From the NCBI RefSeq assembly GCF_041919955.1, contig NZ_JAYRSU010000008.1, positions 2,943 to 66,942 of the forward strand: a stretch of 64,000 bases of DNA, written 5' to 3'. The DNA is from Phenylobacterium sp. Its GTDB lineage: Bacteria > Pseudomonadota > Alphaproteobacteria > Caulobacterales > Caulobacteraceae. Each line of letters begins with the position of its first letter. The first letter of the stretch is position 1. Position numbers and translations under genes: made by a program. The notes beneath the pieces are model-generated. The model had not been told where the DNA came from. It did not search any database and saw only the letters and a list, made by a program, of their open reading frames with translations. Shown here piece by piece: positions 9,563-41,275 of this stretch.

Positions 9563-9598
9563 TCGGGTTCGCCGATCAGCGCCGTCGAGGCAGCCTGG

Positions 9599-10447
9599 CT
9601 AGTTCAGCAAAGTGATCGGGTCGACCATCTGCCCGTCCACCTCGACCCAGCCCATGTGATTGACGCCTGACGACCAGCCGAGCAGGCGCTGAATTGTCTC
9701 CGGATAGCTGGCCACGACGTCGCGCGACAGCGCCAGGTACATGTTCTCCTCCTGGCGGACATTGGCCGCATCGATCGTGATCGTCAGGCCGGTCCTTAGC
9801 TGGTCGGAGGTCGTGTTGGTCCCGCCGGCGTGATAACAGCTGCCGACGAACAGCAGCGCCGACCCGGACTTCATGATCGTGGGGCGGGCCTCCGACATTT
9901 TCGGGACGCGCTCGTCATCCCAAAGGTGGCTGCCCGGAATAACCAGCGTGCCGCCGTTCTCGGCGGTGAAGTCGGATATCGCCACCATGACCTGGAGGCG
10001 CGCCTCGCGGCCATAGGTCGGATGTCGCCAAAGGAAGGCCGTATCGTCCCGATGCAGCGGCTGGGCTCCCTGGCCGGGCCCGATCTGAATGAGCTGGGTC
10101 ACGCCGATCCGAATGCCGGGATAGAACTCCCGCCTCTGGTCTCCCGCCCCGTAGACCACCGGCCGATTGATCAGCGCTTCGGCTACCGGAAGATATAGGG
10201 GGTGCGTGGCGACGTCGGCCATGCGACGCGAGTGGGCGAAGAGCGCGCTCATCCGCTTGGTCTGAGCGCCCGAAAAGGGATCCCCGCCCGTCGATTTCGC
10301 CGCCAGCTTCGGCAGCAGATCCGCTTTCAGTTCGGAGATCGTTTCCGCGGGGAGAAAGTCCTCGATGATGACTCCTCCATCGCGCTCGAGGATCGCCAGG
10401 ACGTCCTGGGCGGTCGACGCCGCGGTCACCCTCTCGACTTCAGCCAT
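9599..10447 (-). CDS. Phytanoyl-CoA dioxygenase (PhyH) family Fe(II)/2OG dioxygenase
   Basis: QPLHRDD (HxD), AISDFTAENGGTLVIPGSH, CYHAGG (distal His). Confidence 0.92.
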   Translation of the reverse strand: MAEVERVTAASTAQDVLAILERDGGVIIEDFLPAETISELKADLLPKLAAKSTGGDPFSGAQTKRMSALFAHSRRMADVATHPLYLPVAEALINRPVVYGAGDQRREFYPGIRIGVTQLIQIGPGQGAQPLHRDDTAFLWRHPTYGREARLQVMVAISDFTAENGGTLVIPGSHLWDDERVPKMSEARPTIMKSGSALLFVGSCYHAGGTNTTSDQLRTGLTITIDAANVRQEENMYLALSRDVVASYPETIQRLLGWSSGVNHMGWVEVDGQMVDPITLLN

Positions 10448-10521
10448 GACAGTTCACTCCCCTACGGGCGGGCCGGCCAGACACGCCAATCAAACATCGT
10501 TAGTCGCGCTACCGCGACACA

Positions 10522-12051
10522 TCAGACCGTTTCCGAGGATGCGCGCAGGACCTGCGCAGCAGCCTGGCCGTCATATCGGAAGGCGGGACCGTCCAGGTCG
10601 ATCGCCGGAAAGGCTTCCTTGTCGGCCAGATAGTCCTGGCTATGGCGCCATTCGGGATGATCCAGGCTGCGCGGAAGTTGCGGTAGCGCGCGGGTCAGGT
10701 AGCCCGGATTGAAGTTCTCGGGGTCGATCCACGGTCGCCGCGGCAGACGATCGACGTCCGACGGCGGCGAGACCTCCACCCAATTGGCGCCCCGCGCATC
10801 GAGGTGCTCCAGCAGCCGGATCACGAACTGGGCCAACAGGTCCGAACGGAGCGTCCAGCTGGATCGGAAATAGCCGAACACCCAGGCGAGGTTCGGCAGG
10901 CCGCTGAACATCATGCCGCGATAGCCGACGCTGCTCGCGATATCGAAAGGCGCCCCGTCGACCGTAAAGGCGATGTCGCCGAAGACATTCATGTTGAAGC
11001 CGGTGGCCGCGATCACGACGTCCGCCGCCAGGGTCCGGCCTGACTTCAACAGCACTCCGTCGGGAACGAACCGCTCGATCTCGTCGGTGACCATGGCGGC
11101 GCGCCCGGCGCGGATCGCGTGCAGCATGTCGGCGTTCGGCAGGAAGGCCAGGCGCTGGCGCCAGGGCCGGTAGCTGGGCGAGAAGTGCGCCCGCGTGATC
11201 TCCGGCCCTACGATGGCTTCGACCGCCGCCAGCAGCTCGGCGCGGACCTCGTCGGGCGTATCGCGGCAACTGTCCGCGAGCGCAGCCTCCTGGGCGAGGA
11301 TGTCGCGCCGTACGATTTCGTGGATCCAGGCCTCGTCGACTTTCAGCGCCCGCAGCCGATCGGCGAGCTCATTGCTGTTGTCGGCATAGGCGAAATAGGT
11401 CGGCGAGCGCTGCAGCAAGGTGGTTTCCGCGCAGGTCTCGGCGATGTTCGGAACGATGGTCGCCGCTGTCGCGCCCGACCCCACCACCACGACCTTCTTG
11501 CCGGCCAGATCGAGGTCGTCGGGCCACTCCTGGGCGTGCACCAGCCGGCCCGCGAAGTCGGCTTTACCTGGCCAATCGGGCATATGGCCTTCGCGATGGC
11601 GAAAGTATCCCTGGCACATGAACAGGAAGCGGCCGGTGAATACGCGGACGCCGCCATCCGCGGTCTCGGCGATCACCGTCCAGAGGCCCGCCTCGCTGCT
11701 CCATCGCGCGTCCGCTACGCGGTGGCCGAAGCGCATGTGGCGGCGCAGATCGTTCTCGTCCACCGCTTCGCTCAGATAGTTCAGGATCTCCGCCCCTGTG
11801 GCGATCGGAGGGCCCGACCACGGCTTGAACCCGTAGCCGAAGGTGTAGAGGTCGCTGTCCGACCGGATCCCCGGGAAACGGTTGGTGCGCCAGGTTCCCC
11901 CGAACGAGGCCTCCGCATCCAGGATAACGAAGCTCCGTTGCGGCGCATCGCGTCGCAGGTGATAGGCCGCGGCGATCCCGGAGATCCCCGCCCCGACGAT
12001 CAGGACCTCAAAGTGCTCCGGCTTGGCCGCATCGGCGATCTGCGCGCTCAT
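10522..12051 (-). CDS. Flavin monooxygenase / Baeyer-Villiger monooxygenase, EthA/AlmA type
   Basis: GAGISG, FPGIRSDSD, BVMO fingerprint FAGRLVHAQEWP, GSGATA, LQRSPTY. ATG 12051; TTG 12060 is an alternative start. Confidence 0.92.
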   Translation of the reverse strand: MSAQIADAAKPEHFEVLIVGAGISGIAAAYHLRRDAPQRSFVILDAEASFGGTWRTNRFPGIRSDSDLYTFGYGFKPWSGPPIATGAEILNYLSEAVDENDLRRHMRFGHRVADARWSSEAGLWTVIAETADGGVRVFTGRFLFMCQGYFRHREGHMPDWPGKADFAGRLVHAQEWPDDLDLAGKKVVVVGSGATAATIVPNIAETCAETTLLQRSPTYFAYADNSNELADRLRALKVDEAWIHEIVRRDILAQEAALADSCRDTPDEVRAELLAAVEAIVGPEITRAHFSPSYRPWRQRLAFLPNADMLHAIRAGRAAMVTDEIERFVPDGVLLKSGRTLAADVVIAATGFNMNVFGDIAFTVDGAPFDIASSVGYRGMMFSGLPNLAWVFGYFRSSWTLRSDLLAQFVIRLLEHLDARGANWVEVSPPSDVDRLPRRPWIDPENFNPGYLTRALPQLPRSLDHPEWRHSQDYLADKEAFPAIDLDGPAFRYDGQAAAQVLRASSETV

Positions 12052-12142
12052 ATTCGACAATTGTCCGCAATGCTGACGAAGCGGCGGCGCCGGCCTGAAA
12101 AAAGCCCGCAGGCGCCGCTGCGAGAAGGGTTCTCAGGCGCGC

Positions 12143-13036
12143 CTACAGCGCCAGATGCTCTTCCAGAGGCCGCGTATGGGCTCGCCACAGGAAGCCGGGC
12201 TGCTCGCCCTTGTAGGAGATCGAGCGGAACCCGAGGTAGGACTGCAGGCGCTGCGGGTAGGTCCGCGCCTCGTCCGCCGTGATGACATGCGGCCACGCCT
12301 CTTCACCCAGGATGATCCCGGGGCTGAACGCGGTCGACAGCACCCGGCGTCGCCGATCCTTCGTGACGTTGGCGCCGCCGCCGTGCAGCACCTTGCCGCT
12401 GATGCAGAGCACGTCGCCGGGGAACATGGTCGCCGGAATGGTCTGGGACTGTTCTCCCGGCGTCTCGTAAGATTCCCAGTGGTTGCTGCCGGGGATCACG
12501 CGGGTCGCGCCCATTTCCTCGGTGACGTCGGTCAAGGCCAGCAGGAAGTTGACCTGGAGATTCGGACCGCCGGGGCCGCCGACGCCGAGGACCTCCATCA
12601 GGCCGCCGCCATCGCGGTGCAGTTCCTGGGGCCGCTCGCCGGGATAGATCTCGATCCCGTGGCTCGCATACATCGTATGGCTCCCCGCCGGCCCCGGCAT
12701 CATCGCAGCCAGATACTCCCGGATGATCGGTGCGTCGTAAAAGGCCTCCCGCAGGGTGCGGCTGTATTTGACGCAGTGGGCCAGGCGCTTGGTCTTGTGG
12801 CCCATGAAGTCGCCGACGAAGGTCTGTCCGCCATCCGAGAAATTGCCGCCCGCCAACCGATCGAACTCGCGGTCGAGATCGGCGTTGATCGCGGCCACCT
12901 CGGCCGCCGAGAGGGCGGCGGTCAGGATGACGCCTCCCTCCAGTTCGACGACGGCGGCGACCTCTTCGGCCGGCGCCCCGAACGGCAGGCGGCGCATGGT
13001 GGCCGAGGGGCGCGCGGAGACGGCGTTCTGGGACAT
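12143..13036 (-). CDS. PhyH family Fe(II)/2OG dioxygenase (second copy)
   Basis: QELHRDG, ALTDVTEEMGATRVIPGSNHW, VLHGGGAN. Start set at ATG 13036. Confidence 0.92.
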   Translation of the reverse strand: MSQNAVSARPSATMRRLPFGAPAEEVAAVVELEGGVILTAALSAAEVAAINADLDREFDRLAGGNFSDGGQTFVGDFMGHKTKRLAHCVKYSRTLREAFYDAPIIREYLAAMMPGPAGSHTMYASHGIEIYPGERPQELHRDGGGLMEVLGVGGPGGPNLQVNFLLALTDVTEEMGATRVIPGSNHWESYETPGEQSQTIPATMFPGDVLCISGKVLHGGGANVTKDRRRRVLSTAFSPGIILGEEAWPHVITADEARTYPQRLQSYLGFRSISYKGEQPGFLWRAHTRPLEEHLAL

Positions 13037-13097
13037 GTCATTCAAACTCCATTGGAGATCAGATGGGGGCATGGAGATCGCGCACCGCGCCCGGCAC

Positions 13098-13550
13098 TCG
13101 ACAAAAATCGTATGGGGAAGCACTCGGCTTCTGACTCGAAAGCCCACGCCGGTCGGGCCGCCCCTTCACGGCCGCGCCGGGGAATCTCACCGTCATAATA
13201 TTGATCCCAGGGGACAAAATGCCCACCGTCGACGGCCTTTTCATCTCGCGCGTATGGCCGGGACTGCAAGACGCCATGTGAGACCCTCAGCGAGTTTCTC
13301 CCGCTCCTGAAACTGATAGAAAATCAATTTAAATCGAATTTCAAGCGGTTCTTGAGCTTTTCAAAGAATAGCGAGCCGCGCCCACGCTCAGCGCCGGGGC
13401 GCGGCCCCACGCGGCGCCCAGCGCACGCCGCAGCCAATCCGCCTCACGAAGCACGAGCCGACAGCCCGCAGACGCGACCCAAGGCCTGAATTCTTGCCAA
13501 GTTGACGACTTTCCGCCATCTCAGACCGCAGGATAGTTGAATAATATCGA
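13098..13550. promoter_or_regulatory. Three TCGA-N6-type motifs in the divergent PhyH2/TetR3 intergenic region
   Basis: TCGA CAAAAA TCGT (13098), TCAA TTTAAA TCGA (13324), TTGA ATAATA TCGA (13537). Confidence 0.5.
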
Positions 13551-13567
13551 GTGGAGAGACTTGCAGG

Positions 13568-14314
13568 ATGGGGACATCGGACGCCGCCGCGGGGAAGGAG
13601 ACAAAGCCTCGCCGACGCGAAGGTCCGCGCACGCCGTCCCGCGGCCGGGGCCTGCTTCGGTTCAACGCGCTGCTGGACGCGACTGAGAGCCTGCTGCAGT
13701 CGACCAACCCGGACGAGATCGGTCTCTACCAGATCGCCGAGCGAGCCAACGTTCCGCCGCCGTCCGCTTACCACTTCTTTCCGACCAAGGAGGCGGCCTA
13801 CGACGCCCTGGCCCAGCGCTTCATAGTGCAGTTGCTGGACGTCCACAGGACGCCTATCGAAGCGCGCCGCCTGAACAACTGGACCGACCTGTTCCTGATC
13901 GACATCGACCGCGGCCGCGCCTTCTACAATCGCCACCCGCCGGCGCTGAAGATCTTCTACGGCGGCTATGGCGGCGTGAACGCCAAGAACATCGACCGGA
14001 TCGCGGCCGACAAGATCTCGACCTCGAACTACGACCGCATGAACCGCGTCTTCCACATGCCGATCCTTAGCGACACCCATCGCCTGTTCGAAGTGCGCCT
14101 GGGAATCCTCGACGCCATATGGACCCTGTCGGTGCGTCGCCACGGCTACATCACCCAGGACTATCAGGATGAAGCTGTGGAGGCGTGCCTGGCCTATAGC
14201 CGCGTCTACCTGCCGGCCCGGATCGAACGACGCGGCTCGTTGATCCAGGCCGCAGAGCGCGGGGAGAGCGTTACACTGCCCTTCGAGCCGAGCGCCGACG
14301 AACTGGAAGCCTAA
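13568..14314 (+). CDS. TetR/AcrR regulator, paralog 3
   Basis: [39 protein letters not shown]. Confidence 0.9.
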   Translation: MGTSDAAAGKETKPRRREGPRTPSRGRGLLRFNALLDATESLLQSTNPDEIGLYQIAERANVPPPSAYHFFPTKEAAYDALAQRFIVQLLDVHRTPIEARRLNNWTDLFLIDIDRGRAFYNRHPPALKIFYGGYGGVNAKNIDRIAADKISTSNYDRMNRVFHMPILSDTHRLFEVRLGILDAIWTLSVRRHGYITQDYQDEAVEACLAYSRVYLPARIERRGSLIQAAERGESVTLPFEPSADELEA

Positions 14315-14328
14315 CTGCGCCGCACCGC

Positions 14329-16398
14329 TCATCGCCCATGGGTGAACATCTGAGCGTGGGCCGGCGGGGGCCGGCGCGCTTCGGCCAGCAGATAGGCGCG
14401 CAGATCTTCGACATCGGTTTCGTTGAAGTAGCGCCGGAACGAAGCCATGCCCTGGGTCGAGAGCGCGCCCTCCAGGACGATCGCGCGGAACCCTTCAGGC
14501 TCCAGAATCGCCGAGGAACGCGCCAGGACCGGGAAGAACTGTTCGGCTCCGTGACACGTCACGCAGAACTGGTCGGCCAGCGCCTTGCCATGCGCGGGGT
14601 CCCCCTTCGACGGCGTGGCGGAACTGACGTCGAGGCGCGGCGCCACGAAGGGTTCAGGCAAGGCGGGCGGGCGGCCGTCTCCGCCAAGCTTGAAGACCAG
14701 AAGGCGTCCTTGCCTGCGCGGCTCTGGGCCGCCGATCGCGGCCGCGCCTCCATAGCCGACCATCAGAGCGACGAACTGCTCGCGGCCGACCGCGTATGAG
14801 ATCGGCGGAGCGATGGCGGCCGCGCCCACGTCGACGCGCCACAGCTTTGCGCCGCTCGCCGCATCAAAGGCGATCAGGTCGTGGCCCGCGGCGTGAAACA
14901 CCAGATCGCCCGCCGTCGCCAGCACCCCGCTGCGCCACGGCTCGGGAAAGTTCACGGTCCAGCGCGCGCGTTGCAGCACCGGATCCCAGGCGACGAGCGC
15001 GCCGCTCACGGGAGGTTCCCTGCCGTCCGCCGGCGGCGTCGCCGCCCCCTGCCCCATGTTCCATGCGCCAGGGACATAGGTGAAGCGGGCCGGGTCGCTG
15101 TAGCTCATGTGGAGGATCTGCGCCGGGATGTAGACGAGACGCCCCTTCGGATTGAAGGCCATCGGCTGCCAGTTGTGGCCGCCCAGCGCGCCTGGGGTCT
15201 GCAGGTTTTCCCTCAGATATCGCGCGTTCGCCGTCTCGACCGGCCGGCCGGTCCGGAGGTCGATGCGTTCGGCCCAATCGGCCGGGACATACTTCTCCGC
15301 CGAGAGCAGTCGCCCCGAGGCGGCGTCGAGAACGTAGAAGAAGCCGTTCTTGGGCGCCTGCATGACCACGCGGCGCTCGCGCCCGTCGATCGGCAGGTCC
15401 GCCACCATGATGTGCTGGGTCGCCGTGAAGTCCCAGCTTTCGCCCGGCGTGGTCTGGTAGTGCCAGACGTACTGTCCGGTGTCCGGCTTCAGCGCCACGA
15501 TCGACGAAAGGAAGAGGTTGTCGCCGCGCCCGCCGGACCGGATCTTGTGGTTCCAGGGCGAACCGTTGCCGACGCCGACGAACAGAAGATCGAGCTTCGG
15601 ATCGTAGGTGATAGCGTCCCACACCGTGCCGCCGCCGCCCGTCTGGCGCCACGCGCCCTCGCTCCAGGTCGAACCGGCTTTCTCGCGCAGGACGGCGTCA
15701 GAGGCCGCGCCATCGGCGCGCCCCTGGGGGTTGGGCGTGGTGTAGAAGCGCCAGACGAGCTTACCGCTCGCCGCGTCATAGGCCGAGACGTAGCCGCGGA
15801 CGCCATACTCCGCGCCGCCGTTGCCGATGATGATCAGGCCCTTCACCGCCCGCGGCGCGCCGGTGATCGTGTAGGGCTGGCCGGTCGGCGTCGTCTGGAC
15901 GCTCCAGGCCGGCGCGCCGGTCCGGGCGTCGAGCGCGATCAGCCGCCCGTCGAGGGTTCCGACATAGACACGCCCCTTCCACAGCGCCACGCCTCGGTTT
16001 ACCGCGTCGCAACAGGCGTCGAAGCCCTTGGCGCCCAGGACTTTCGGATCGAAGGCCCAGAGCCGCTTGCCGGTCTTGGCGTCGAACGCCAGCACCTTGG
16101 ACCAGGCCGTGGTCGTATAGAGGACCCCGTCCGCGACGAGCGGCGTGGCCTCCTGCCCCCGGTCCGTATCGAGATCGGCCCACCAGGCGACGCCCAGACG
16201 GACGACGTTGTCGCGCTTGATCGCATCGAGCGGCGAAAACCGCTGCTCGGCGTAGTCGCGGCCATAACTCAACCATTCGCCGGCCTTAGCCGCTTCGATG
16301 CGCCTGGCGTCAACGCCCTGACTGCAGGCGCAGAGCAACGACAGCGCCATGAGCGCCGCGCCGCCGATCAACCGTCGGACCTTCAGATTTCCCACCAT
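14329..16398 (-). CDS. Type II quinohemoprotein PQQ-dependent alcohol dehydrogenase (Ca2+ type), exported, possibly lipoprotein
   Basis: Signal ...ALSLLCAC; RGQEATPLV; vicinal CC (DACCDAVNRG); WDFTATQ; C-terminal heme c motif CVTCH. ATG 16398. Confidence 0.93.
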   Translation of the reverse strand: MVGNLKVRRLIGGAALMALSLLCACSQGVDARRIEAAKAGEWLSYGRDYAEQRFSPLDAIKRDNVVRLGVAWWADLDTDRGQEATPLVADGVLYTTTAWSKVLAFDAKTGKRLWAFDPKVLGAKGFDACCDAVNRGVALWKGRVYVGTLDGRLIALDARTGAPAWSVQTTPTGQPYTITGAPRAVKGLIIIGNGGAEYGVRGYVSAYDAASGKLVWRFYTTPNPQGRADGAASDAVLREKAGSTWSEGAWRQTGGGGTVWDAITYDPKLDLLFVGVGNGSPWNHKIRSGGRGDNLFLSSIVALKPDTGQYVWHYQTTPGESWDFTATQHIMVADLPIDGRERRVVMQAPKNGFFYVLDAASGRLLSAEKYVPADWAERIDLRTGRPVETANARYLRENLQTPGALGGHNWQPMAFNPKGRLVYIPAQILHMSYSDPARFTYVPGAWNMGQGAATPPADGREPPVSGALVAWDPVLQRARWTVNFPEPWRSGVLATAGDLVFHAAGHDLIAFDAASGAKLWRVDVGAAAIAPPISYAVGREQFVALMVGYGGAAAIGGPEPRRQGRLLVFKLGGDGRPPALPEPFVAPRLDVSSATPSKGDPAHGKALADQFCVTCHGAEQFFPVLARSSAILEPEGFRAIVLEGALSTQGMASFRRYFNETDVEDLRAYLLAEARRPPPAHAQMFTHGR

Positions 16399-16409
16399 CG
16401 CCAGCCCGA

Positions 16410-16730
16410 TCAGTGCTGGCTTTGCGGAAGACGCACGACCAGGCCGTCCAGCGCATCGACGATCCGGATCTGGCATGAGAGCCGCGAGTTCTCTTCGACG
16501 CCCTCGGCGAACTCCAGCATGCTCTCCTCCATGGCCGTGCGGCCGCCGACCTTCGTGAGCCAGGCCGGCTCCACATAGACGTGGCACGTCGCGCAGGCGC
16601 AGGCGCCGCCGCAGTCGGCGTCGATGCCGGGGACGTTGTTCTTCACGGCCGCGTCCATGACCGTCAGGCCGGCGTTGGCCTCGACGACGTGCGCATCGCC
16701 ACTGTGCTCGATGTAGGTGATTTTCGGCAT
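16410..16730 (-). CDS. fdx: 2Fe-2S ferredoxin (putidaredoxin/adrenodoxin type)
   Basis: [13 protein letters not shown]...SRLSCQI. Confidence 0.95.
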
Positions 16731-16823
16731 GGAGCGTTTCGCCGCCCTCCAGGGGCGCGCCTCTTCAGTATCTGCAGGAGGTTGAATGGTTGCGGAAGGC
16801 GCCTCCCGGCGCCCTCCTGCGGT

Positions 16824-19311
16824 TCAGGGGCGGCCCGAGGCGAGACGGCGCCCCAGCACCATGAACGCGGCGAGGCTGACCGCCGCCGCGCCCGCGAACA
16901 GGGCGTAGAGCGGCATGAAGCCGTGCGCGCCGGTCAGCAGCGAGCCTGCCAGCATCGGCCCGAGCGCGCCGCCGACGGCGAGCGCAGCCGGCATCAGCAC
17001 CGCCACATTGCCGCGGCCGTCCGACGAGGCGATCATCCCCATCTGATAGGCCATGGGGAAGTTCCACAGCCCCCCGGCCAGCACGACGCCGGCCAGATAG
17101 GCGCCGAGGCCCTGGCCCCACTGAAGCGCCGCAACACCGGCGATCGCCAGCAGCATCCCCACCGCCAGAGGCTTCGCACGCCCGAGCTTGTCTCCCAGGA
17201 AGGCGGCCGCGAGGCCCGCCACGCCGCTGACCACCAGGGTGGCGGTCAGGACGCCGTCGGCGGCCTGCGGGCTGACGCCGAACGTCGGGGCGAGTTCGGA
17301 GATGAACGCCCAGAGCGCGGCCAGGCCTGCGAAGGCGACGAACAGCGCCGACAGCCCGAGCCAAGGCGCCCAATCGCGCAGGACCGGCGAGCGGCCGCCG
17401 GCCAGACGCTGCATCGCAAAGCGTCGCTCGGGCGGGGTGAGCGCGCGGCCGGCCGGCATTCCGCGAAGTCCGCAGAGCGTCGCCACGCCAACCATGCCGG
17501 CCAGGGTCAGGACCGCGCCGGAGAACCCCCATCGCGCGGTGACGAACGTCGTCAGGGCCAGCAGGGCGACGATGGCGAGCCCCACCTCGCCTGCGAGCTT
17601 GAAGCCGAACGCCTGGTCAGGCCGATGATGTTCCGAGACCACGGCGATGCAGACGGTGTAGAGCACCCCCAGGCCGGCCCCGGCGATCACCAGGGCCGCC
17701 AGCAGCACCGCGTAGGATCCTACCGCCGCGCAACTCGCCAGGCCCGCCACAGATAGGGCCGAGGCGCCCGCCACCAGGCGGCGCCAGTTGAACCGGTCGA
17801 TCCATAGGTTCGAGGTCGTTGCGACGAGCGCGAAACCCGCCAGGTAGCTGGAGCCGACCAGTCCGATCTGGTTCTCATGAAGACCGAAGCGGGCCGCAGC
17901 GGCGACCAGCAGCGCCGGCATCAGGTTGAAGAGCAGCGCCGCGGCCGCCGATACCGCCGTGGCCGAGGCCAGGACCGTCTTGGACTGCCGATAGAGCGTC
18001 GGCCGCTCGACCGGCGGCGGCGCTTCGGCCGGCGCCGAGCGGGCTGGCAGCGCGCTCGAAGCCGGAATGCGGACCGGGAGGCTGGTGTAGCCTTTGACGA
18101 ATGGCGTGGCCGGGCGAACGGGCTCGCCCATGACCTCGATCACCGGGTAGCGTTTGAGAATCTCTTCCCAGACGATGCGCAACTGCATCTCGGCAAGGCG
18201 GTTGCCCACGCAGCGATGGATGCCGAAGCCGAACGACATGTGCTGGCGCGGTCGCTCGCGGTCGATGATGTAGCGGTCGGGGTTCTCGATCACCGTCTCG
18301 TCACGGTTGCCCGAGACGTACCACATGACCACCTTGTCGCCCTTCTTGATGGTCTTGCCGCCGAGTTCGGTGTCCCGCGTCGCCGTTCGCCGCATGTGCG
18401 CGAGCGGCGTCTGCCAGCGAACCGTCTCGGAGACCATGGACGGGATCAGCTCGGGATGATCGCGCAGCTTCTGGTACTGATCGGGGTTCTGGTTCAGCGC
18501 CAGGACGCTGCCGGTCATGGTGTTCCGGGTCGTGTCGTTGCCGCCGACGATCAGGAGAATGACATTCCCCAGATACTCCATCGGCGACATGTTCCGGGTG
18601 GCCTCGCCGTGCGCCAGCATGGAGATCAGGTTGAAGGCCGGCTCGGCGTTGACCCGTTCGTTCCACAGGCGGACGAAGTAATCGAGGCACTCCATCAGGA
18701 CTGCGGTCTGCTCCTCGACCGTCTCCACCAGCGCCCCGGGCGCCGGCAGGGTCGTGGCGACGTCGGACCAGTAGGTGAGCTTGCGTCGGTCCTCGAACGG
18801 AAAATCGAACAGGGTTCGCCAGCATCTGGGTCGTCAGCTCGATGGAGACCCTGTCGACCCAGTCAAACGTCTCGCCGATGGGCAGCTCGTCCAGGATCTT
18901 CGCTGCGCGTGACCGGATCAGATCTTCCATCCGCGCGAGATTGGCCGGGGCCACGATGGGCGCGACCACCTTGCGCTGGTGATCGTGCTTGGGCGGGTCC
19001 ATGGCGATGAACATCGGCAAGGCGTCCTTCGACAGGTCGTCGAGGATGGCGATGCCGCCGTAGCGGATGTCGGATGAGAACGCCTCGTGGTTGGTGTCGA
19101 CCGCCATGATGTCGTTGAACTTCGTCACCGACCAATAAGGACCGAACTGGCTCTTCGGGCAGAAGTGAACCGGGTCCTCGGCCCGCAGCCGCGCGAAGTA
19201 GGGCCAGTGGCTGTCGGTCCGCCAAAGCTCCGGATTACTGACGTCGATGTCCTCGAGCGCGATTGCAGCCGCATCCAGGCTCTCGCGGGCGACAGCGCCA
19301 TCGTCTGCCAT
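16824..19311 (-). pseudogene. CYP153-family cytochrome P450 fused in frame to a C-terminal MFS transporter; one +1 frameshift at 18815-18816 (real or sequencing error)
   Basis: P450 motifs [48 protein letters not shown]. After LPVRIPA a Pro/Ala linker leads without a stop into about 12 TM segments. Removing one A in GCGAACC restores [16 protein letters not shown] and a single 828-aa ORF. Confidence 0.85.
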
Positions 19312-19362
19312 GGGTCATGCTCCCTGCTGGCCGGTTATATCCGGCTGCATTGCCTAGGTCAT

Positions 19363-19402
19363 TCGTCCTAGATTGAGTAGGACGACCGTCCTAGACTGTC
19401 AA
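19363..19402. promoter_or_regulatory. TetR operator overlapping the P450 promoter
   Basis: Perfect dyads TAGGACG-AC-CGTCCTA (19378-19393) and TCGTCCTA-N7-TAGGACGA (19363-19385). Minus-strand TTGACA at 19397-19402. Confidence 0.75.
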
Positions 19403-19427
19403 GGAAGTCCTGCTATAGGCTGCCCGA

Positions 19428-20075
19428 ATGAGCGACATCGATTTGGCGAAGGCGAATCCGCGAGCGCGGAGGAGCCATGAGGCGGCGGCGGATTCACGGA
19501 GCGTGAGCGAGAAGATCCTCGACAGCGCCGAGATCGTTCTGCGGCGCCACGGCTATGCGGGCTTCTCGACCCGGCGCGTCGCGCAGGAGGCGGCGATTGC
19601 GTTGGGCAACCTCACCTATCACTATCCGACCAAGCCTGAGCTCGTCCAAGCGCTGATCAGCCGGCTGATCACGCGCTATCTGGATCGCTTTCAACAAGTC
19701 CTCAGGACGCCTGGGCGCGGTGTGGAGGATCTGGTTCGCTGGCTGCTGGAAGAGGCCGTCGCAGAAGAAGCGATGTGGCTGTTTCGCGAACTCTGGGCCA
19801 TGGCCCTGCATGACGAGATCGTGCGCGAAGCGATCGACGACCTCTACGATGAGCTGATGGGCAAGGTCGCCGCGACGCTGGAGGCCGCCTACCCCTCGGC
19901 GGACCCGCAGGCCGTGCGGGACCTCGTCCAATTCATCGCCCTGATCTCGGAGGGCAGCACGGTGCTCTACGGGACGAGACGATCCAGGGTCACGCCTCGC
20001 CAACGGATGATCGACCTCGCCGTGCGCCTCACCTCCGTGATCGCGCCCGAACTGGCGCCGGGCGGCGCGTCGTGA
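19428..20075 (+). CDS. TetR/AcrR regulator, divergent from the P450 operon
   Basis: HTH FSTRRVAQEAAIALGNLTYHYPTK. Confidence 0.92.
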   Translation: MSDIDLAKANPRARRSHEAAADSRSVSEKILDSAEIVLRRHGYAGFSTRRVAQEAAIALGNLTYHYPTKPELVQALISRLITRYLDRFQQVLRTPGRGVEDLVRWLLEEAVAEEAMWLFRELWAMALHDEIVREAIDDLYDELMGKVAATLEAAYPSADPQAVRDLVQFIALISEGSTVLYGTRRSRVTPRQRMIDLAVRLTSVIAPELAPGGAS

Positions 20076-20509: not shown

Positions 20510-21121
20510 CTAAGCCCTCGCCTCCTTCCGCGGATGCATGGTCTCCATCAGGCGTCGTAGAAGCCCGATCGATTGCTGGACGTCGCCGACGCCGGGCTCC
20601 AGCACAGTGGAGATCGACAGGCCCCGGATCGCCCAGACGACCAGCCGCATCTCGGCCACGCTGCTTGCGAACTCGGGCGGGAACCACTTGGTCAGGCTTC
20701 GCGCCGCTTTCTTCGAGACCCGCTCGAGCACCGGCGCCAGCCGCGCCGCCATGGCCGGGTCGCTGCGCGAGCCCTGCAGGATCTCCAGCACCGCGACGCC
20801 GGCCGGGCGACTGAGAACCTCCCAGACCACCTCGGGGATGGCGTAGACCCGCTCCAACGGATCGGGGATGGCGGCGTAACGCGCGTCGTAGAGCGCCATC
20901 TCCTCCTCTGCGACGGCCTCCATCACCGCGGCCATCAGGTCGGCGCGAGTCGGGAACTGGTGCAGCATCGCCCCGCGGCTGCCCGAACGGTCGGCGACCA
21001 GCGAGGTGGTCGTCGCCGCATAGCCCAGAGTGTGCAGGCTGGTGATCGCCGTCTCGATCACCCGCGCCCGGGTCCGCGCGCTGCGCTCGGCCTGGGTCAG
21101 TCTGGGCGGTCGTTCGGTCAT
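20510..21121 (-). CDS. TetR/AcrR regulator with an apparent one-codon deletion in the HTH
   Basis: RLTQAERSARTRARVIETA...TTTSLVADRSG-SRGAMLHQFPTRADL. ATG 21121. Confidence 0.85.
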   Translation of the reverse strand: MTERPPRLTQAERSARTRARVIETAITSLHTLGYAATTTSLVADRSGSRGAMLHQFPTRADLMAAVMEAVAEEEMALYDARYAAIPDPLERVYAIPEVVWEVLSRPAGVAVLEILQGSRSDPAMAARLAPVLERVSKKAARSLTKWFPPEFASSVAEMRLVVWAIRGLSISTVLEPGVGDVQQSIGLLRRLMETMHPRKEARA

Positions 21122-21420
21122 CTGCGATTCCTGGCCGGCTGCCCGATATATCCACGCAGCGCGCAGGCCTTCGCAAGGCTGCGCCGACGACCTCAGATAC
21201 ATGCGGTATTGACCGGATGTAAATTGCCGATCTAGTTTGCGCCCGACTCCGGGGCATCGGGGCGCTTCAGAATTCGAGACAGCCGCCGCGGGCGCGCCGC
21301 TTTGCGCCCGCCCCAGTACCCGTTCCTTTCGGCTCCGCCTCCCATTCCGAAGCGCGTCGGCGCGTCATGATATCGATTACACAACCAGGCGGTGAAAAGG
21401 CCGCCGAAACAGGGGGAAAG

Positions 21421-23760
21421 ATGAGCATTTCCATTCGCGGGCTGTTGCTGGCCACTTCGGGCCTGGCCCTCGCGGCACTGGCCGCGCCGGCCGCCGCGCA
21501 GACCACGCCCGACAATATGTTGGCCGAGCTGGTGGTCACCGCCCAGAAGCGGGCCGAGAACGTCCAGGACATTCCCAAGCCCGTCCAGGTCGTCGGGTCC
21601 AACGAACTGGCCCAGAGCAACGTCACCGAGATCTCGGACCTGAAGAAGCTGGTGCCGGCGATTTCCGGGACCGGGCTCAGCATCCGCGGCGTGGCGACCT
21701 CGGCCTCCAGCATCGGGGCCGAGAACAAGGTCGGCGTCACGCTGGACGATGTGCCCCAGCCCTCGCGCGCCACCCTCGCCAACAACCTGATCGACATCGA
21801 GCGGGTCGAGGTGCTGCCCGGGCCGCAAGGCACCCTGTCGGGTCGCAACGCCACCGGCGGCCTGATCAACCTGGTCACCCGCGCGCCGTCCAAGACCTGG
21901 ACCGGCTTCGCCACCGCCATGGTCACCGACGACCACGAACGCCAGTTCGGCGCCTATGTCTCGGGCCCGGTCACCGACTGGGCCGCCTTCAGCCTGTCGG
22001 CCTATTCGCGCCACACCCGCGGCCTGTTGACCAACCTCACCACCGGCACGGACACCTATTCCGAGGTCAGCGGCCTGCGCGGCAAGCTGGAGCTGACCCC
22101 GACCGACGACCTGACCGTCACCCTCACCGCCTTCCATCAGCAGCGCAACGCGGTGGAACAGGGCCTGGGCGCCTTCATCCTCGCCTATTCGTCGATCCCG
22201 ACCTCGCAGATCTTCACGCCCTACGACTTCAACGGCCCGCGTCGGCCGTTCTCGGAGCTGCGCCCGGCCGCCGTCGGTCCCGGCCAGAACGGCTTCTCCT
22301 CGCCGCGCGACTCCAAGAGCCGCACCATGAACGACGGCGGCGTGATCCGGATCGACTACGACCTGGGTGAAAGCACCCTGACCTCGATCACCTCGTACCT
22401 GCGCGAGACCAATCCCTCGCGCACCGACCTGACCGCCTCGACCCTGGTCAACATGGCCATGCGGCCGGACTTCGACGGCTTCGCCCACATCTTCAACAAG
22501 ACCAACTACATGACCCAGGAGGTGCGGCTGACCTCGCCGACCACTACCGCCTTCCAGTACGTGGTCGGCGCCTTCTATTCGAAGACCGAGAACACCTACG
22601 ACTACACTCGCTTCCTGCTGCCGGTGGACTGGCACCGAGTGTTCGGCCAGGAGGCGGTCGCGATCTTCGCCCACGCCTCCTACGACGTCACCGACAAGCT
22701 GACCCTGGCCGGCGGCCTGCGCTACGAGAAGGACGAGATCGACTACGACTGGACCTTCAAGCCGATCGGCGCAACCAGCCGGCGGCTTGAGAACGGCATC
22801 ACAATCCCCTTCCCGAAGATCAACGACCTGATCGTCAGCCGCGGCTCGGCCTCGGGCGACTATGTCAACTACGACATCTCGGCCCAGTATCACCTTACCG
22901 ACGCGATCATGGCCTATGTCACCTATGGCAAGGCCTCGCAGGGGCCGGTCTACGACGCCGAGGACAACACCGTGGCCATGGTGCGCCCGCTCACGGCGCT
23001 CGAGCCTGAGAAGGTGAAGGCCGTCGAGGCGGGCCTGAAGACCGAATGGTTCGACCGTCGCCTAGTGCTGAACGCCAACTATTTCGACAGCCGCTACGAC
23101 AACTACCAGCTCCAGACGATCCTTTACGACGCCACCATGGCCAACACGATCCCGGTGCTGAAGCTGGCCTCGGTCGGCCAGGTGCGCACTCGCGGCGTGG
23201 AGCTGTCGGCCGCGGCCGTGGTGACCAGCGACTTCCGCCTGAACGCGGCGGTCTCCTACACCGACGCCAAGATCGAATCCTTCCCCTACGCTCCCTGCTA
23301 CACCGGCCAGACCGTGGCGCTGGGCTGCGAGACCATCGTGGTTCCGGGCGAGACGGCCGCGCGGCCGGTGCAGCGCGACCTGGCGGGCCGCTCGCTGGCC
23401 AGCGCGCCCAAGTGGCGGGGCACGTTCAGCGGCGCCTACACCTTCCGCCAGCTCGTCGGCGATTACGACCTGATCCTGAGCGGCACGGTCCGCGCCCAGA
23501 GCAAGTCCAACACCGATCTCCTCGGCGACCCAGCCAAGAACCTTGCGGCCACCACCTTCGTCGACGCCGCCGCCAGCCTCACCAACGGGACCTATCGGTT
23601 CGATCTGCTGGCCAACAACCTCTTCGAGGAGAGCGCCGAGACCTACGGCACGACCATGGGCATCTATCAGCCGCCCGCCGGCACGGTGATCCGCACCCGC
23701 ACCGGGATGAGCCGCGACAACACCCGCTACTTCGGGCTGCGCGTCACCGCGACCTACTGA
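21421..23760 (+). CDS. TonB-dependent receptor
   Basis: Signal peptide, ELVVTAQKRAENVQDIP, DIERVEVLPGPQGTLSGRNATGG, C-terminal RYFGLRVTATY. Confidence 0.95.
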   Translation: MSISIRGLLLATSGLALAALAAPAAAQTTPDNMLAELVVTAQKRAENVQDIPKPVQVVGSNELAQSNVTEISDLKKLVPAISGTGLSIRGVATSASSIGAENKVGVTLDDVPQPSRATLANNLIDIERVEVLPGPQGTLSGRNATGGLINLVTRAPSKTWTGFATAMVTDDHERQFGAYVSGPVTDWAAFSLSAYSRHTRGLLTNLTTGTDTYSEVSGLRGKLELTPTDDLTVTLTAFHQQRNAVEQGLGAFILAYSSIPTSQIFTPYDFNGPRRPFSELRPAAVGPGQNGFSSPRDSKSRTMNDGGVIRIDYDLGESTLTSITSYLRETNPSRTDLTASTLVNMAMRPDFDGFAHIFNKTNYMTQEVRLTSPTTTAFQYVVGAFYSKTENTYDYTRFLLPVDWHRVFGQEAVAIFAHASYDVTDKLTLAGGLRYEKDEIDYDWTFKPIGATSRRLENGITIPFPKINDLIVSRGSASGDYVNYDISAQYHLTDAIMAYVTYGKASQGPVYDAEDNTVAMVRPLTALEPEKVKAVEAGLKTEWFDRRLVLNANYFDSRYDNYQLQTILYDATMANTIPVLKLASVGQVRTRGVELSAAAVVTSDFRLNAAVSYTDAKIESFPYAPCYTGQTVALGCETIVVPGETAARPVQRDLAGRSLASAPKWRGTFSGAYTFRQLVGDYDLILSGTVRAQSKSNTDLLGDPAKNLAATTFVDAAASLTNGTYRFDLLANNLFEESAETYGTTMGIYQPPAGTVIRTRTGMSRDNTRYFGLRVTATY

Positions 23761-28843: not shown

Positions 28844-31800
28844 TCAGAAGCTCTTGCTGACCTGCGCGAACCAGTAGCGCCCACGATTGCTGTAGAGCTT
28901 GGTGAAATAGCCGAACGTCTCGTCGGCCAGCGGCGGGTCCTTGTCGGCGATATTGTTCACGCCGACCCGGAAGGCGACGCCGGCCAAGGCCCCCTCTTCC
29001 GGCGCATAGCCGACGGCCGCGTTGAAGGTCAGCCAATCGTCGCCTTTGTAGAGCAGGGCCGAGGAGTCCTTCACCGCCCCGACATAGCGGGCGTAGCCGG
29101 ACACTTCCCACGGACCAGACGACCAGGTGACATAGGCTTGGCCGCGGGTGCGGGGATTGTCGTCCTGCTCGATCAGCGAGCCGCCTGCGCTGGCCGGCAG
29201 GCCGGCGGCCAGAAGCGCGGCCGCCTCGGCCGAGGGCGTCTGGTCGAACTTCTGCAGCAGGGCGACATCGAGGCCCAGGCGGAAGTCGCCGAAGTCCGTA
29301 CCGTCGATGCGCCAGGTCGCGCCCAGGTCGATGCCCTCGATGGTGCGGGAGTCGAGATTGAGGAACTGGTTGGCGATGCGGACCGGCTCGCCCAGCGCAT
29401 TGCGGGTGAGAGCCGGGTTCGGCCCCGAACCGCCGAGCCGGCCGATGGCGTCGAGGTTCAGGTGGTCCTGCGACTCGAACACCCCGACCACGCCCTCCTG
29501 CTCGATGCGCCACCAGTCGACGGAGAACAGGAGGTCAGGCGTCGGCGTAAAGACGATGCCGGCGCTGAAGTTTTCGCTGGTCTCGGACTTGAGCGCCCGG
29601 TTGCCGGCCCGCACGTCCTCGACATTGAACCGATAGGTCGAACAGGCGGAGCGGTTGAGGTTGGCGAACTGCGTAACGCCCTGGGCCACCGCGCAGGCGT
29701 AGTAGTCGGTGAGGTTCTCCTGCACGCGACGGATCTCGGACGCGTTCACCGTCTCGAGGTTCGGCGCGCGGAAGCCCTGGGAATAAGCGGCCCGCACCAG
29801 GAGATAGTCGTTCAGCCGCCAACCCAGCGCCGCCTTCGGGCGGACGATCTGCTCGTCGATGTCGGAATAGTCCTCGAAGCGTGCGGCCAGCTGCAGGTCC
29901 AGGCTGCGGACGAACGGGATGTCGGCCTCTTCGGGGATCAGCTTTGTCTGAAGTTCCGCATACGCCGAGAACACCTTGCGCGAGCCGGACGTATCGGGCG
30001 TCGGGCTGGACCCCATCGCGTCGCTCGTCGGCCCGCCGGAGGTCGCGAAAGTGATCGTGCCATCGATCCGCGGGTCGCGGTCGTCCTTGAAGGTCTCGCG
30101 CCGCCATTCAGCGCCGAAGGCCAGACCGACGTCGCGGCCGGCGAGGGTGAAGGCCTGGGGATTGCTGATCTTGGCGTCCCACAGCGCCAGGCTGGTGGTC
30201 CCATCGCGGGTGATGCTGACCCGCAGCGGATCGACCACCGCGGCCGGGTTCAGGGTCGCGTCGAAGCCGCCCGGATTGGCCAGGTTCCCGCCGTTGAAGG
30301 GATTGTAGGCGCGTGCGGGGTCGCTGCTGTTCAACGCCGCCTGGAGGGCGGTGTTGCTGACGCGGTTGCTTTCGACGTCCTTGGTGCGAGCGTGCGAGTA
30401 GAGCAGCGCGCTCTCCCACGCCCAGCCGCCCAGCTTGCCGCGCACGCCGCTCAGCAGGCGGTAGGCGTCGGAGTCCACGTCGATCCGGCGGCGACCGACA
30501 TCGTCGACGCGCAACCCGACCACGGTGATGGCCTGGGCCGGCCCCGTATATCCCGCCAGTCGCCCAGGGCCGGAGCCGAACGGATTGTAGGGGTTGTTCG
30601 CCCCGATGCTCAGCGGCGCGGAGGTCAGATTCGTAGTGCCGCCGCGGACAGAGCTCGACGTCGCGCCATAGTAGAGCGCCTGGCCGAACCACTCGACACC
30701 GCCGAAGTCATGGCTGGCCACCGCCATCAGGCTGTAGCGGTCGGAGCTGGGCGACATGGTGCGCTCAGGCCCCTCGTCGGTGCGCAGGGTTCCGTCCAGG
30801 GTTGTGGAGCCACCGTCGATACAGACGCTCCCGCCAAGCTGAGCGTCGGAACCGGTGTAGGAACAGGGCTGGATATGAAACGCCGTGAACGACGGTCCAA
30901 AGCCGGTCACGGCGGTCCCGACCCGGCCAGTCAGCCAAGGCGTGAGGCTCGATCGGTTGTCGAAGCTGCCGGCGTACTGCGCTGAAACACGGCTGCTGAG
31001 GTTGTCGGTCGCCGCATAGTCGCGATCGCTGGCGGGCATGTCGGTGCGGCTGAAGTACTCCCCGAACAGCGCGACGTGCGTGGCGCCGTCGTTGAAGCGT
31101 GCGCCCCACTTGGCGCCGAGCGAGGCCTCGGTGAGGTTCGTGCCCTCCGATCCGCCATAACGGGCGACGACCTCGGCGCCGACATAGCCGTCGTCCAGAA
31201 CGTTGTTCAGCACGCCGGCGACAGCGTCGGAGCCGTAGAGCGCCGCCCCGCCGTCCCGCAGGACCTCCAGGCGCTTCAGGGCCGTGGCCGGGATGGTGTT
31301 GAGGTTGACCACCTGGACCGGGACCGAGCCTTCCTGCTGGGTGCCGGGGTGAGCGACCATGCGCCGCCCGTCCAACAGCACCAGCGTGTTGCCAGAACCG
31401 AGCCCGCGCAGGTTCGCCGACGCCACGTCGCCGCGAGCCTGATTGGGGCCCTGCTGCTCGTTGTTGAACGCCTGCCCGCCAGACTGCGGCAGAGCGGCGA
31501 TCATTTCACCCGCCGTGACCGCCCCGCTCATCTCGAGTTCGCTACGATCCACCACCGAGACCGGCAACAGGCCCCGCTCGGTGACGCCGGCGATGTTCGA
31601 GCCGACCACCACGATCTCCTCGATCTCGGCGGGCGCGACGTTCTCCACCGTCCCGGAAGGTGCGACCGGCGCAGCCGCTGTCGACACCTTGCTGACCGTA
31701 GCCGGCGCCGGCGCGCGTTCGATGACGATGGTGCGGCCGCTTTCGCGCGAGCGAAGAGGCTGGCCGGCCAGCAGCCGTTGGACCGCCGCGGAAACGGCCA

Positions 31801-32023
31801 GGTCCCCTTGAATCGCCGGCGCACGCCGCCCATCGACCAGGGCAGGATCGAACAGCACCTCGCGTCCGGCCTGTACGCCAAGCGTGCGCAGAGCCGCGCC
31901 GAGGTCCTGGGCGGGAATGTCGAACTGCGCGCGCACGGGCGCTTGGGCCCAAGCCGCCGATCCGACCAGCGCGACAGCCGCCGAGCTGGCCAAGGCCATG
32001 GTCCTGAGATGATGAACTTGCAT
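28844..32023 (-). CDS. TonB-dependent transducer with N-terminal STN signalling domain
   Basis: FDIPAQDLGAALRTLGVQAG (STN), EEIVVVGS, RLEVLRDGGAALYGSDAVAGV, C-terminal RYWFAQVSKSF. ATG 32023; the ORF-track extension upstream is spurious. Confidence 0.95.
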   Translation of the reverse strand: MQVHHLRTMALASSAAVALVGSAAWAQAPVRAQFDIPAQDLGAALRTLGVQAGREVLFDPALVDGRRAPAIQGDLAVSAAVQRLLAGQPLRSRESGRTIVIERAPAPATVSKVSTAAAPVAPSGTVENVAPAEIEEIVVVGSNIAGVTERGLLPVSVVDRSELEMSGAVTAGEMIAALPQSGGQAFNNEQQGPNQARGDVASANLRGLGSGNTLVLLDGRRMVAHPGTQQEGSVPVQVVNLNTIPATALKRLEVLRDGGAALYGSDAVAGVLNNVLDDGYVGAEVVARYGGSEGTNLTEASLGAKWGARFNDGATHVALFGEYFSRTDMPASDRDYAATDNLSSRVSAQYAGSFDNRSSLTPWLTGRVGTAVTGFGPSFTAFHIQPCSYTGSDAQLGGSVCIDGGSTTLDGTLRTDEGPERTMSPSSDRYSLMAVASHDFGGVEWFGQALYYGATSSSVRGGTTNLTSAPLSIGANNPYNPFGSGPGRLAGYTGPAQAITVVGLRVDDVGRRRIDVDSDAYRLLSGVRGKLGGWAWESALLYSHARTKDVESNRVSNTALQAALNSSDPARAYNPFNGGNLANPGGFDATLNPAAVVDPLRVSITRDGTTSLALWDAKISNPQAFTLAGRDVGLAFGAEWRRETFKDDRDPRIDGTITFATSGGPTSDAMGSSPTPDTSGSRKVFSAYAELQTKLIPEEADIPFVRSLDLQLAARFEDYSDIDEQIVRPKAALGWRLNDYLLVRAAYSQGFRAPNLETVNASEIRRVQENLTDYYACAVAQGVTQFANLNRSACSTYRFNVEDVRAGNRALKSETSENFSAGIVFTPTPDLLFSVDWWRIEQEGVVGVFESQDHLNLDAIGRLGGSGPNPALTRNALGEPVRIANQFLNLDSRTIEGIDLGATWRIDGTDFGDFRLGLDVALLQKFDQTPSAEAAALLAAGLPASAGGSLIEQDDNPRTRGQAYVTWSSGPWEVSGYARYVGAVKDSSALLYKGDDWLTFNAAVGYAPEEGALAGVAFRVGVNNIADKDPPLADETFGYFTKLYSNRGRYWFAQVSKSF

Positions 32024-32094
32024 GCCGCGCCCCCTTTGATCCCTTCCCGCGCGATGCGGGTGTCCAGGCGAAGACGCCAAGGGGCCTTGGCCCC

Positions 32095-40118: not shown

Positions 40119-40120
40119 GA

Positions 40121-41251: not shown

Positions 41252-41275
41252 GGGAGCCCCCTTGTCGGAGAGAAA

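Follow-up and report, generated by a model that had tools for sequence, protein, structure and literature searches.

A conserved CYP153-MFS fusion family in Alphaproteobacteria and a frameshifted copy beside ferredoxin and quinohemoprotein dehydrogenase genes in Phenylobacterium

The stretch of DNA analysed here, in the following called the window, comprises 64,000 nucleotides (nt) of a Phenylobacterium sp. contig (NZ_JAYRSU010000008.1, positions 2,943 to 66,942 of the forward strand). On its minus strand it carries a gene for a CYP153-like cytochrome P450 fused to a permease of the major facilitator superfamily (MFS), followed by genes for a [2Fe-2S] ferredoxin and for a quinohemoprotein alcohol dehydrogenase (ADH), while a gene for a TetR-family repressor lies divergently on the plus strand (Table 1). 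Pfam assigns TetR_N to the repressor, p450 and MFS_1 to the 828-amino acid product that is obtained when one surplus base is removed from the fusion gene, Fer2 to the ferredoxin, and a pyrroloquinoline quinone (PQQ) propeller together with a cytochrome c domain to the ADH. Bacterial P450s are generally considered to be soluble enzymes, and the natural fusions known for them join them to redox partners. The finding of value is a conserved and apparently undescribed family of CYP153-MFS fusion proteins, of which the window most likely holds a freshly broken copy.

The CYP153-MFS fusion family

A search with the repaired protein retrieved 62 clusters (built at 90% identity) which cover 98-100% of the query at 67-97% identity; at least 61 of these are full-length, ranging from 819 to 846 amino acids with a typical length of about 827. 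The carriers include Sphingomonas sp. CL5.1, Hyphomonadaceae, Caulobacteraceae and Rhizomicrobium. Moreover, a scan with patterns taken from the MFS domain over one genome per species, covering 185,579 species, returned 25 loci, and in all 25 the P450 domain is found directly upstream and in frame. The P450 domain is conserved at 76-88% across loci, compared with 59-74% for the MFS domain. Judged by these sequences, the CYP153-MFS fusion is a real and conserved alphaproteobacterial family. A full-text literature search found no paper on a CYP153-MFS fusion, and the family is apparently undescribed so far.

Public annotation conceals the family, since the records are labelled plainly as cytochrome P450 or contain the MFS part only. 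For the loci L038 (6741-9227) and L039 (6765-9254) the public records call the MFS part alone, with 408 and 417 amino acids, respectively, despite an intact P450-MFS open reading frame (ORF). P0271 and P0274, which were considered as standalone MFS orthologues, were rejected as annotation artefacts lying over intact fusion ORFs of 828-829 amino acids, and the contigs of P0124, P0125 and P0128 were too short to be informative. True unfused paralogues of the MFS domain do exist at 57-60% identity; they are found in an amine oxidase-PhyH-TetR-MFS arrangement in L032 and as PhyH-cupin-MFS beside the fusion in L004. Further CYP153 relatives were observed in other contexts. In P0102 (1246 amino acids) and P0105 (1234 amino acids), both from outside the window, a CYP153-like P450 is fused to a long TPR/SPINDLY-type region resembling O-GlcNAc transferases, a further CYP153 fusion architecture that is apparently undescribed, and in L016 (874-14131), a Caulobacteraceae metagenome-assembled genome (MAG), three more CYP153 paralogues with 56-62% identity to the P450 domain surround the fusion.

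Over 402 aligned positions the repaired P450 domain shares 68% identity with CYP153A7 (PDB 3rwl), with other CYP153 structures as next best matches, and it passes the amino acid identity thresholds for both the CYP153 family (>40%) and the subfamily (>55%). The heme-thiolate loop FGFGIHRCVGNRLAE, of the pattern FxxGxHxCxG, and the I-helix signature GGNDTTRN with its acid-alcohol pair are present in the repaired translation and do not vary among 61 fusion proteins. Both identity and motifs thus class the P450 domain as CYP153A-like, although the copy in the window is not intact. The linker that follows, from LPVRIP to the first transmembrane helix, is of conserved length, and part of its sequence is conserved as well (RIPxS..LP.R......RP....P.YRQ); the AlphaFold2 (AF2) model of P0001 contains no regular secondary structure over about residues 415-443. 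This full-length model reaches a predicted local distance difference test (pLDDT) value of 78.6 and a predicted template modelling (pTM) score of 0.67.

The model of the MFS domain is of higher confidence (pLDDT 89, pTM 0.88) and consists of 12 helices, with N-terminal stub, central loop and C-terminus all arginine-rich and the loops obeying the positive-inside rule. This predicts an N-in/C-in topology, which would place the P450 in the cytoplasm. A profile search of the MFS domain against the PDB gave no match at E<=0.01; Foldseek matched it to many MFS structures with a probability of 1.00 and template modelling scores of up to 0.78, the best bacterial matches being the solute carriers OxlT and SfMCT. 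These rank slightly higher than VMAT and the drug exporters NorA and SotB, and sequence identity is 14-20% throughout. The MFS signature motif A, G-x3-D-R/K-x-G-R-R/K, occupies the loops between helices 2-3 and 8-9; motif-A-like loops are present here as IDRFNWRR and GDKLGRAKP, and their D/R/G/R positions are invariant in alignment A1. The antiporter motif C, GxxxGPxxGG, is characteristic of helix 5 in DHA1 efflux pumps, and no GP..GG was seen by eye, against the AF2 helix boundaries, in helix 5 of the fusion (PDQAFGFKLAGEVGLAIVALLALT), which is weak evidence. Altogether at least 90 positions of the MFS domain are invariant, including charged and polar residues.

The frameshifted copy and its operon

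In the window, an extra A within the context ATGCTGGCGA[A]CCCTG breaks the P450-MFS gene into two ORFs. All homologues have GCG ACC CTG TTC GAT TTT at the place at which the coding strand of the window reads ATGCTGGCGAACCCTGTTCGATTTT. The first ORF (19311-18301) thus encodes 165 native residues followed by about 170 out-of-frame residues, and the second (18728-16824) is the one called in the public NCBI record, as a product of 634 amino acids starting from GTG at 18728. This called product is devoid of the first ~200 residues of the P450 fold, and the window copy has no intact reading frame over the whole fold. The independently assembled Logan contigs of run X1, a source-like activated-sludge metagenome in which 98% of the locus words are present, carry the extra base at a depth of 18 with no alternative contig. 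The base is absent from near-identical contigs of five other runs (X2, X3, X4, X6 and X12) and from L031, a 97% identical locus in which the gene is intact. Because X1 has the extra base while the five relatives and L031 lack it, the insertion appears to be confined to the source population. The extra base is most likely a recent inactivating mutation, and the P450 hydroxylase step is probably inactive in this strain.

It is unlikely that the base is instead a systematic read or assembly error and that the gene is intact in the organism. Its absence from all five related populations and from L031 would fit such an error, as would the lack of a recorded library type for run X1 and the isolated frameshifts seen in other MAG loci, e.g., in the MFS part of the fusion gene of L027 (7018-7024; a Caulobacteraceae MAG, either a MAG error or a decayed copy). 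Against this stand the independent k-mer assembly of X1, in which no contig without the base was found, the nature of the site, which is a two-base run (GCGAACC) and no long homopolymer, and the NCBI record, which itself gives the truncated product. Programmed frameshifting was ruled out, as the site offers no slippery-site or stop context and all relatives are without the extra base. The extra base also forms a 5-bp hairpin (CGAAC/GTTCG) with a T-rich tail (18806-18818) that is flagged by a terminator scan and is probably meaningless.

The fusion gene is separated from the ferredoxin gene by 93 nt and the ferredoxin gene from the ADH gene by 11 nt. A terminator scan of the region gave no terminator-like site between the three genes; the matches it returned lie inside genes and their number is not above the shuffled expectation, and a hairpin in the 93-nt spacer scores no better than shuffles (z = -1.16). 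The sequence suggests that P450-MFS, ferredoxin and ADH form one probable transcription unit; among RNA sequencing runs, none was found to contain the locus. An earlier reading of the window, made from the sequence only, had described a TetR gene divergent from P450-MFS, ferredoxin and ADH genes, with no ferredoxin reductase. The coordinates and Pfam assignments bear out this gene content, orientation and compactness, and also the fusion of the two domains. The same reading had given the ferredoxin-ADH gap as 12 bp, which measures 11 nt, and had missed the frameshift, owing to which P450-MFS is not a single ORF in the window.

Within the 116 nt between the divergent TetR and fusion genes, a TTGACA box precedes two imperfect palindromes, I1 and I2. 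L031, L001, L006 and L007/L039 share the pattern TTGACAGTCTAGG(A/T)C..TCGTCCTA ... CTAGGTC..ATGACCTA in front of the fusion gene, and TetR orthologues with 55-92% identity occupy the same divergent position in L001, L006, L007 and L031. The repressor has a helix-turn-helix domain, palindromes are present in the divergent promoter, and we infer that these palindromes would act as TetR operators over the promoter.

The ferredoxin belongs to the putidaredoxin/FdVI type, with PDB matches to 3hui, 1e9m and putidaredoxin at 1e-22 to 1e-39, and its product shows the cluster ligands Cx5Cx2C...C, including LSCQ. The ADH scores 609.3 bits against TIGR03075 (cutoff 480) and 2.1e-77 against Pfam PQQ; its best PDB match is the type II quinohemoprotein ADH IIB (1kv9; 689 bits, residues 28-673), and 1kb0 is matched with 577 bits. 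Moreover, it contains the vicinal Cys-Cys pair in DACCD and a C-terminal Cytochrome_CBB3 domain (residues 600-670) with the motif CVTCH. Both proteins are ordinary members of their families. Inspected by eye, the N-terminus of the ADH (MVGNLKVRRLIGGAALMALSLLCAC / MVGNLKVRRLIGGAALMALSLLCACSQG; 16315-16398) has the n/h/c form of a signal peptide with a lipobox-like LLCAC, which is kept in L031, and the ADH may be a membrane-anchored lipoprotein and not a soluble periplasmic enzyme. The signal peptide of a second ADH, in L003 (9570-9639), likewise ends in a lipobox-like sequence, there MAAAC, and this enzyme may be a lipoprotein, too. More than 8000 homologues of the ADH are found at E<1e-100, mostly without a fusion gene, the nearest named ones in Phenylobacterium. 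The ADH appears to be a local, lineage-specific periplasmic accessory and not a fixed or defining partner of the fusion.

Pfam scans of all coding-looking ORFs revealed no flavoprotein of the ferredoxin-reductase type in the 64-kb window, in agreement with the sequence-only reading. The sole Pyr_redox-like match is a type I Baeyer-Villiger monooxygenase (BVMO), and the ORFs bearing GxGxxG that were considered as reductase candidates were rejected, being BVMO, DadA-like, transhydrogenase-like or FAD monooxygenase genes. Likewise, a linked ferredoxin reductase was found in none of 27 distinct fusion loci, the window included, that were compared for synteny. Of the class I arrangement with a linked ferredoxin and a linked FAD-containing ferredoxin reductase, the ferredoxin is present here and the reductase is not; the absence of a linked reductase is normal for the fusion family. 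Unlinked reductases are common in alphaproteobacterial class I P450 systems.

Table 1. Features of the fusion locus and its neighbourhood (window coordinates)
Feature	Position	Strand	Basis
TetR-family repressor	19428..20075	+	TetR_N 5.8e-09, TetR_C_6
Divergent promoter region with TTGACA box and two palindromic operator-like sites (~19354-19405)	19312..19427	.	
CYP153-MFS fusion gene, frameshifted; 828 amino acids with one base removed	16824..19311	-	homologues intact, 819-846 amino acids
Surplus A on the coding strand that shifts the frame by +1 after codon 165 of the P450 domain	18815..18815	-	
P450 domain, residues 1-416, CYP153A-like	18062..19311	-	
Conserved linker of ~25-30 residues	17976..18061	-	alignment of 62 fusion proteins with the query
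MFS permease domain, 12 helices	16824..17975	-	MFS_1 4.2e-19; AF2; Foldseek
[2Fe-2S] ferredoxin, putidaredoxin/adrenodoxin type, 106 amino acids	16410..16730	-	Pfam Fer2, PDB matches
Type II quinohemoprotein ADH, 689 amino acids, putative export signal	14329..16398	-	TIGR03075, PDB 1kv9, Cytochrome_CBB3
Second TetR, divergent from the PhyH-BVMO-PhyH operon, convergent with the ADH	13541..14314	+	TetR_N; 64% orthologue in L001
Operon of PhyH (12143-13165), BVMO (10522-12132) and PhyH (9599-10453)	9599..13165	-	Pfam, PDB matches
TetR (20510-21364, -) divergent from TonB-dependent receptor (21367-23760, +)	20510..23760	.	Pfam

Genomic company and the role of the permease

Across the 27 loci the most conserved partner of the fusion is an orthologue of the PhyH gene which in the window lies at 9599-10453 (13 loci), followed by a RidA-family gene (12 loci), a second PhyH type and a second TetR type (10 loci each), the ferredoxin (6 loci), the TetR type of the window (5 loci) and the quinohemoprotein ADH (3 loci). 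The commonest operon, TetR<>PhyH-RidA-[P450-MFS]-PhyH with gaps of 13-14 nt, occurs in 9-10 loci; all its other enzymes are cytoplasmic, which leaves the MFS domain as its sole transporter. The clade of the window is arranged as TetR<>[P450-MFS]>ferredoxin>variable gene, where the last position is taken by the ADH gene in the window and L031, a PhyH gene in Sphingopyxis soli, a RedAm-like dehydrogenase gene in Sphingomonas CL5.1 and a MerR gene in a Caulobacter MAG. A conserved synteny of fusion, ferredoxin and ADH, which had been proposed as a check of the sequence-only reading, is therefore largely missing, given the 3 and 6 loci for ADH and ferredoxin as against 13 and 12 for PhyH and RidA. 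Within the species-level lineage of the window, the order P450-MFS > ferredoxin > ADH is found also in L031 (97% amino acid identity), and the ferredoxin-ADH junction is contiguous in the X2, X3, X4 and X12 populations; this shared order is more than chance. An ADH adjacent to the fusion is thus confined to two lineages in all, one comprising the window and L031 and the other being L003, a Hyphomonadaceae MAG in which a 52% identical quinohemoprotein ADH and a 64% identical BVMO lie divergent from the fusion.

A BVMO accompanies the fusion in the window and in L003, and in L038, from a Hyphomonas sp., an 852-amino acid fusion protein of a BVMO and an alpha/beta-hydrolase (9571-12129) adjoins P450-MFS, which suggests that the pathway forms an ester or lactone and then hydrolyses it. 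The nearest solved relatives of the PhyH-type dioxygenases, as judged by PDB matches, tailor terpenoid and alkaloid scaffolds, and other accompanying enzymes include a class IV aminotransferase, amine or D-amino-acid oxidases and short-chain dehydrogenases/reductases (SDRs). Moreover, TonB-dependent receptors are encoded at most 10 kb from the fusion in L001, L003, L004, L038 and L039, that is, in at least six lineages together with the window, and biosynthetic core enzymes were seen in none of the fusion loci examined. Taken together, the accompanying enzymes point to the breakdown of an amphipathic compound, possibly an alicyclic or nitrogen-bearing one.

The reading that we favour, with a probability of roughly 40%, is uptake of an amphipathic substrate by the permease, which would pass it on to the tethered P450 as part of a TetR-controlled catabolic island. 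The permease would be the uptake or flipping component of an island composed of TonB-dependent receptor, MFS permease and cytoplasmic oxygenases, and it would either carry the substrate, which would have an alkyl or alicyclic portion, through the inner membrane or extract it from there. The substrate would then be presented to the tethered P450 and hydroxylated with electrons delivered by the ferredoxin and an unlinked, shared ferredoxin reductase, and the PhyH-type dioxygenases, RidA, the BVMO and dehydrogenases would continue the pathway. TetR, bound to the two palindromes over the promoter, would free the operon once the substrate is present. The putatively periplasmic ADH may oxidise alcohol groups outside the cytoplasm, either on the incoming compound or on a P450 product that leaves the cell. 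Uptake with hand-off is favoured because the commonest operon combines cytoplasmic oxidative enzymes with no transporter other than the MFS domain, as is normal for a catabolic operon and its uptake permease, because the unfused MFS paralogues are accompanied by cytoplasmic oxidases as well, and because TonB-dependent receptors, which are outer-membrane importers, recur nearby in the absence of biosynthetic core genes. The rank of OxlT and SfMCT above NorA and SotB and the rarity of a linked ADH speak for it, too. Several observations weigh against it. The Foldseek scores are nearly equal for importers, antiporters and exporters and do not separate the direction of transport; helix 11 contains a GxxxGP(M/L) motif (GxxxGPM here) that presumably resembles one of the 12-helix drug exporters; a divergent TetR-MFS pair is the classic layout of efflux systems as well; and seven loci are without any recurrent partner. 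In addition, a quinohemoprotein ADH was recruited beside the fusion twice, in the window and L031 and again in L003, with just 52% identity between the two enzymes, and these independent recruitments suggest a functional link to a periplasmic alcohol-oxidation step.

Such a link is at the centre of the mechanism proposed in the sequence-only reading, a relay in which the P450 hydroxylates in the cytoplasm, the fused MFS domain expels the alcohol and the periplasmic ADH oxidises it. In a widened form of this relay the P450 would act on a hydrophobic compound and the ADH would pass electrons to the respiratory chain. The compartments it assumed agree with the predicted permease topology, the positive-inside loops and the export signal of the ADH seen by eye, and its operon stands; the relay as an obligatory route does not, since the ADH is missing from 24 of 27 loci and the P450 is frameshifted. 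Because of this frameshift the relay cannot run as encoded in the window. We regard the export relay as unlikely, although the tight order of the three genes with no terminator-like site between them, its retention in L031, X2, X3, X4 and X12, the second juxtaposition of ADH and BVMO with the fusion in L003, the predicted export signal of the ADH and the efflux-like TetR-MFS layout would all be in line with it, and the butane monooxygenase and PQQ ADHs of Thauera butanivorans offer an analogous split between compartments. Where the ADH is absent, all partners are cytoplasmic; the ADH family is very large, and most of its members are not linked to a fusion gene; no exporter-specific signature has been established in the MFS domain; and the Thauera precedent needs no exporter, as small alcohols cross membranes. 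In the window and L003 the ketone or aldehyde could re-enter the cell as substrate of the BVMO, and an order of P450, ADH and BVMO would even require that the intermediate leaves the cytoplasm and enters it again.

Still less probable is that the MFS domain carries no solute across the membrane and instead anchors the CYP153 domain or opens sideways to the bilayer, so that the P450 could pick lipophilic substrates such as alkanes, terpenoids or lipid tails from the membrane, by analogy to eukaryotic microsomal P450s. The typically hydrophobic substrates of CYP153 enzymes would suit this, considering the 68% identity to CYP153A7, and so would the stronger conservation of the P450 domain and the existence of several loci without any pathway partner. 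The number of invariant MFS positions, with charged and polar residues and both motif-A-like loops among them, exceeds what an anchor needs, and the unfused MFS paralogues are ordinary permease genes. In more general terms, the fusion proteins may represent a transporter-coupled class of P450s that performs vectorial hydroxylation, in which membrane crossing and first oxidation are coupled, wired here to a periplasmic quinohemoprotein dehydrogenase; we put this forward tentatively, at somewhat less than even odds.

The fusion operon is part of a larger island (554-26051) which also contains a TPR-sulfotransferase, an SDR, a class IV aminotransferase, two more MFS genes, five TetR genes, a TonB-dependent receptor and a GH20 hexosaminidase. 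The island is partly syntenic with Sphingomonas sp. CL5.1, in which the TPR-sulfotransferase, SDR and aminotransferase are 63%, 60% and 79% identical, respectively. A plasmid origin was considered and rejected, as the fusion is missing from PLSDB, in which P450 and ADH have just distant matches. The region 28844-33692 contains an ECF sigma factor gene (33090-33692) next to an ORF of 1404 amino acids in which STN, Plug and TonB-barrel domains were recognised. About 400 residues at the start of this ORF may belong to a separate FecR-like anti-sigma gene that the ORF finder did not split off. A complete RND efflux set of outer-membrane factor, AcrB-like pump and membrane-fusion protein with a divergent TetR gene occupies 35693-42029; it is unrelated to the fusion operon and yet represents an alternative exporter in the neighbourhood.

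Comparison with known systems

If the fusion works as a unit of transport and oxidation, a conserved P450-permease fusion would represent a different design principle, namely substrate channelling between a transporter and a P450. This could explain how some Alphaproteobacteria handle amphipathic or poorly soluble substrates, and it might be of use in whole-cell biocatalysis, where uptake limits CYP153 processes.

The closest known enzymes are the CYP153A class I alkane/terpene hydroxylases such as CYP153A7 (P450pyr) from Sphingopyxis/Sphingomonas sp. HXN-200, with which the fusion shares the heme loop, the I-helix signature and an adjacent [2Fe-2S] ferredoxin. Known CYP153s are soluble proteins of about 420-470 amino acids, their operons usually contain genes for both ferredoxin and ferredoxin reductase, and the usual regulator is of the AraC type. 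In contrast, the system described here has a fused 12-helix permease, no linked reductase in the 27 loci and a TetR regulator, and the copy in the window is frameshifted. The ADH shares the propeller, the Cys-Cys pair and haem c with the type II quinohemoprotein ADHs, i.e., ADH IIB from Pseudomonas putida HK5 (1kv9) and qhEDH from Comamonas testosteroni (1kb0), and it has a putative export signal. While these known enzymes are soluble and periplasmic, the lipobox-like LLCAC of the ADH in the window might indicate membrane anchoring.

In the butane pathway of Thauera butanivorans a cytoplasmic monooxygenase is combined with the periplasmic PQQ alcohol dehydrogenases BOH and BDH. The likeness consists in hydroxylation inside the cell and quinohemoprotein-catalysed alcohol oxidation in the periplasm; the Thauera pathway differs in that it has no dedicated exporter and that its genes are neither fused nor arranged as here. 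LplT-Aas is composed of an MFS lysophospholipid flippase and an acyltransferase/acyl-ACP synthetase, which are fused in some bacteria. By analogy, there too an MFS protein is coupled to a cytoplasmic enzyme that acts on the transported amphipathic molecule, and transport is inward; the enzyme class is a different one, and the likeness is one of design. The self-sufficient P450 fusions, such as P450 BM3, CYP116B/P450RhF and CYP51-ferredoxin, are likewise single chains with a C-terminal partner domain, but their partner is a redox domain, whereas in the CYP153-MFS fusion the partner is a transporter and the redox chain is separate. Finally, TetR/TetA-type modules similarly combine a divergent TetR gene with palindromic sites over a shared promoter; they regulate a plain efflux pump, while the TetR gene described here faces a P450-permease fusion accompanied by a ferredoxin.

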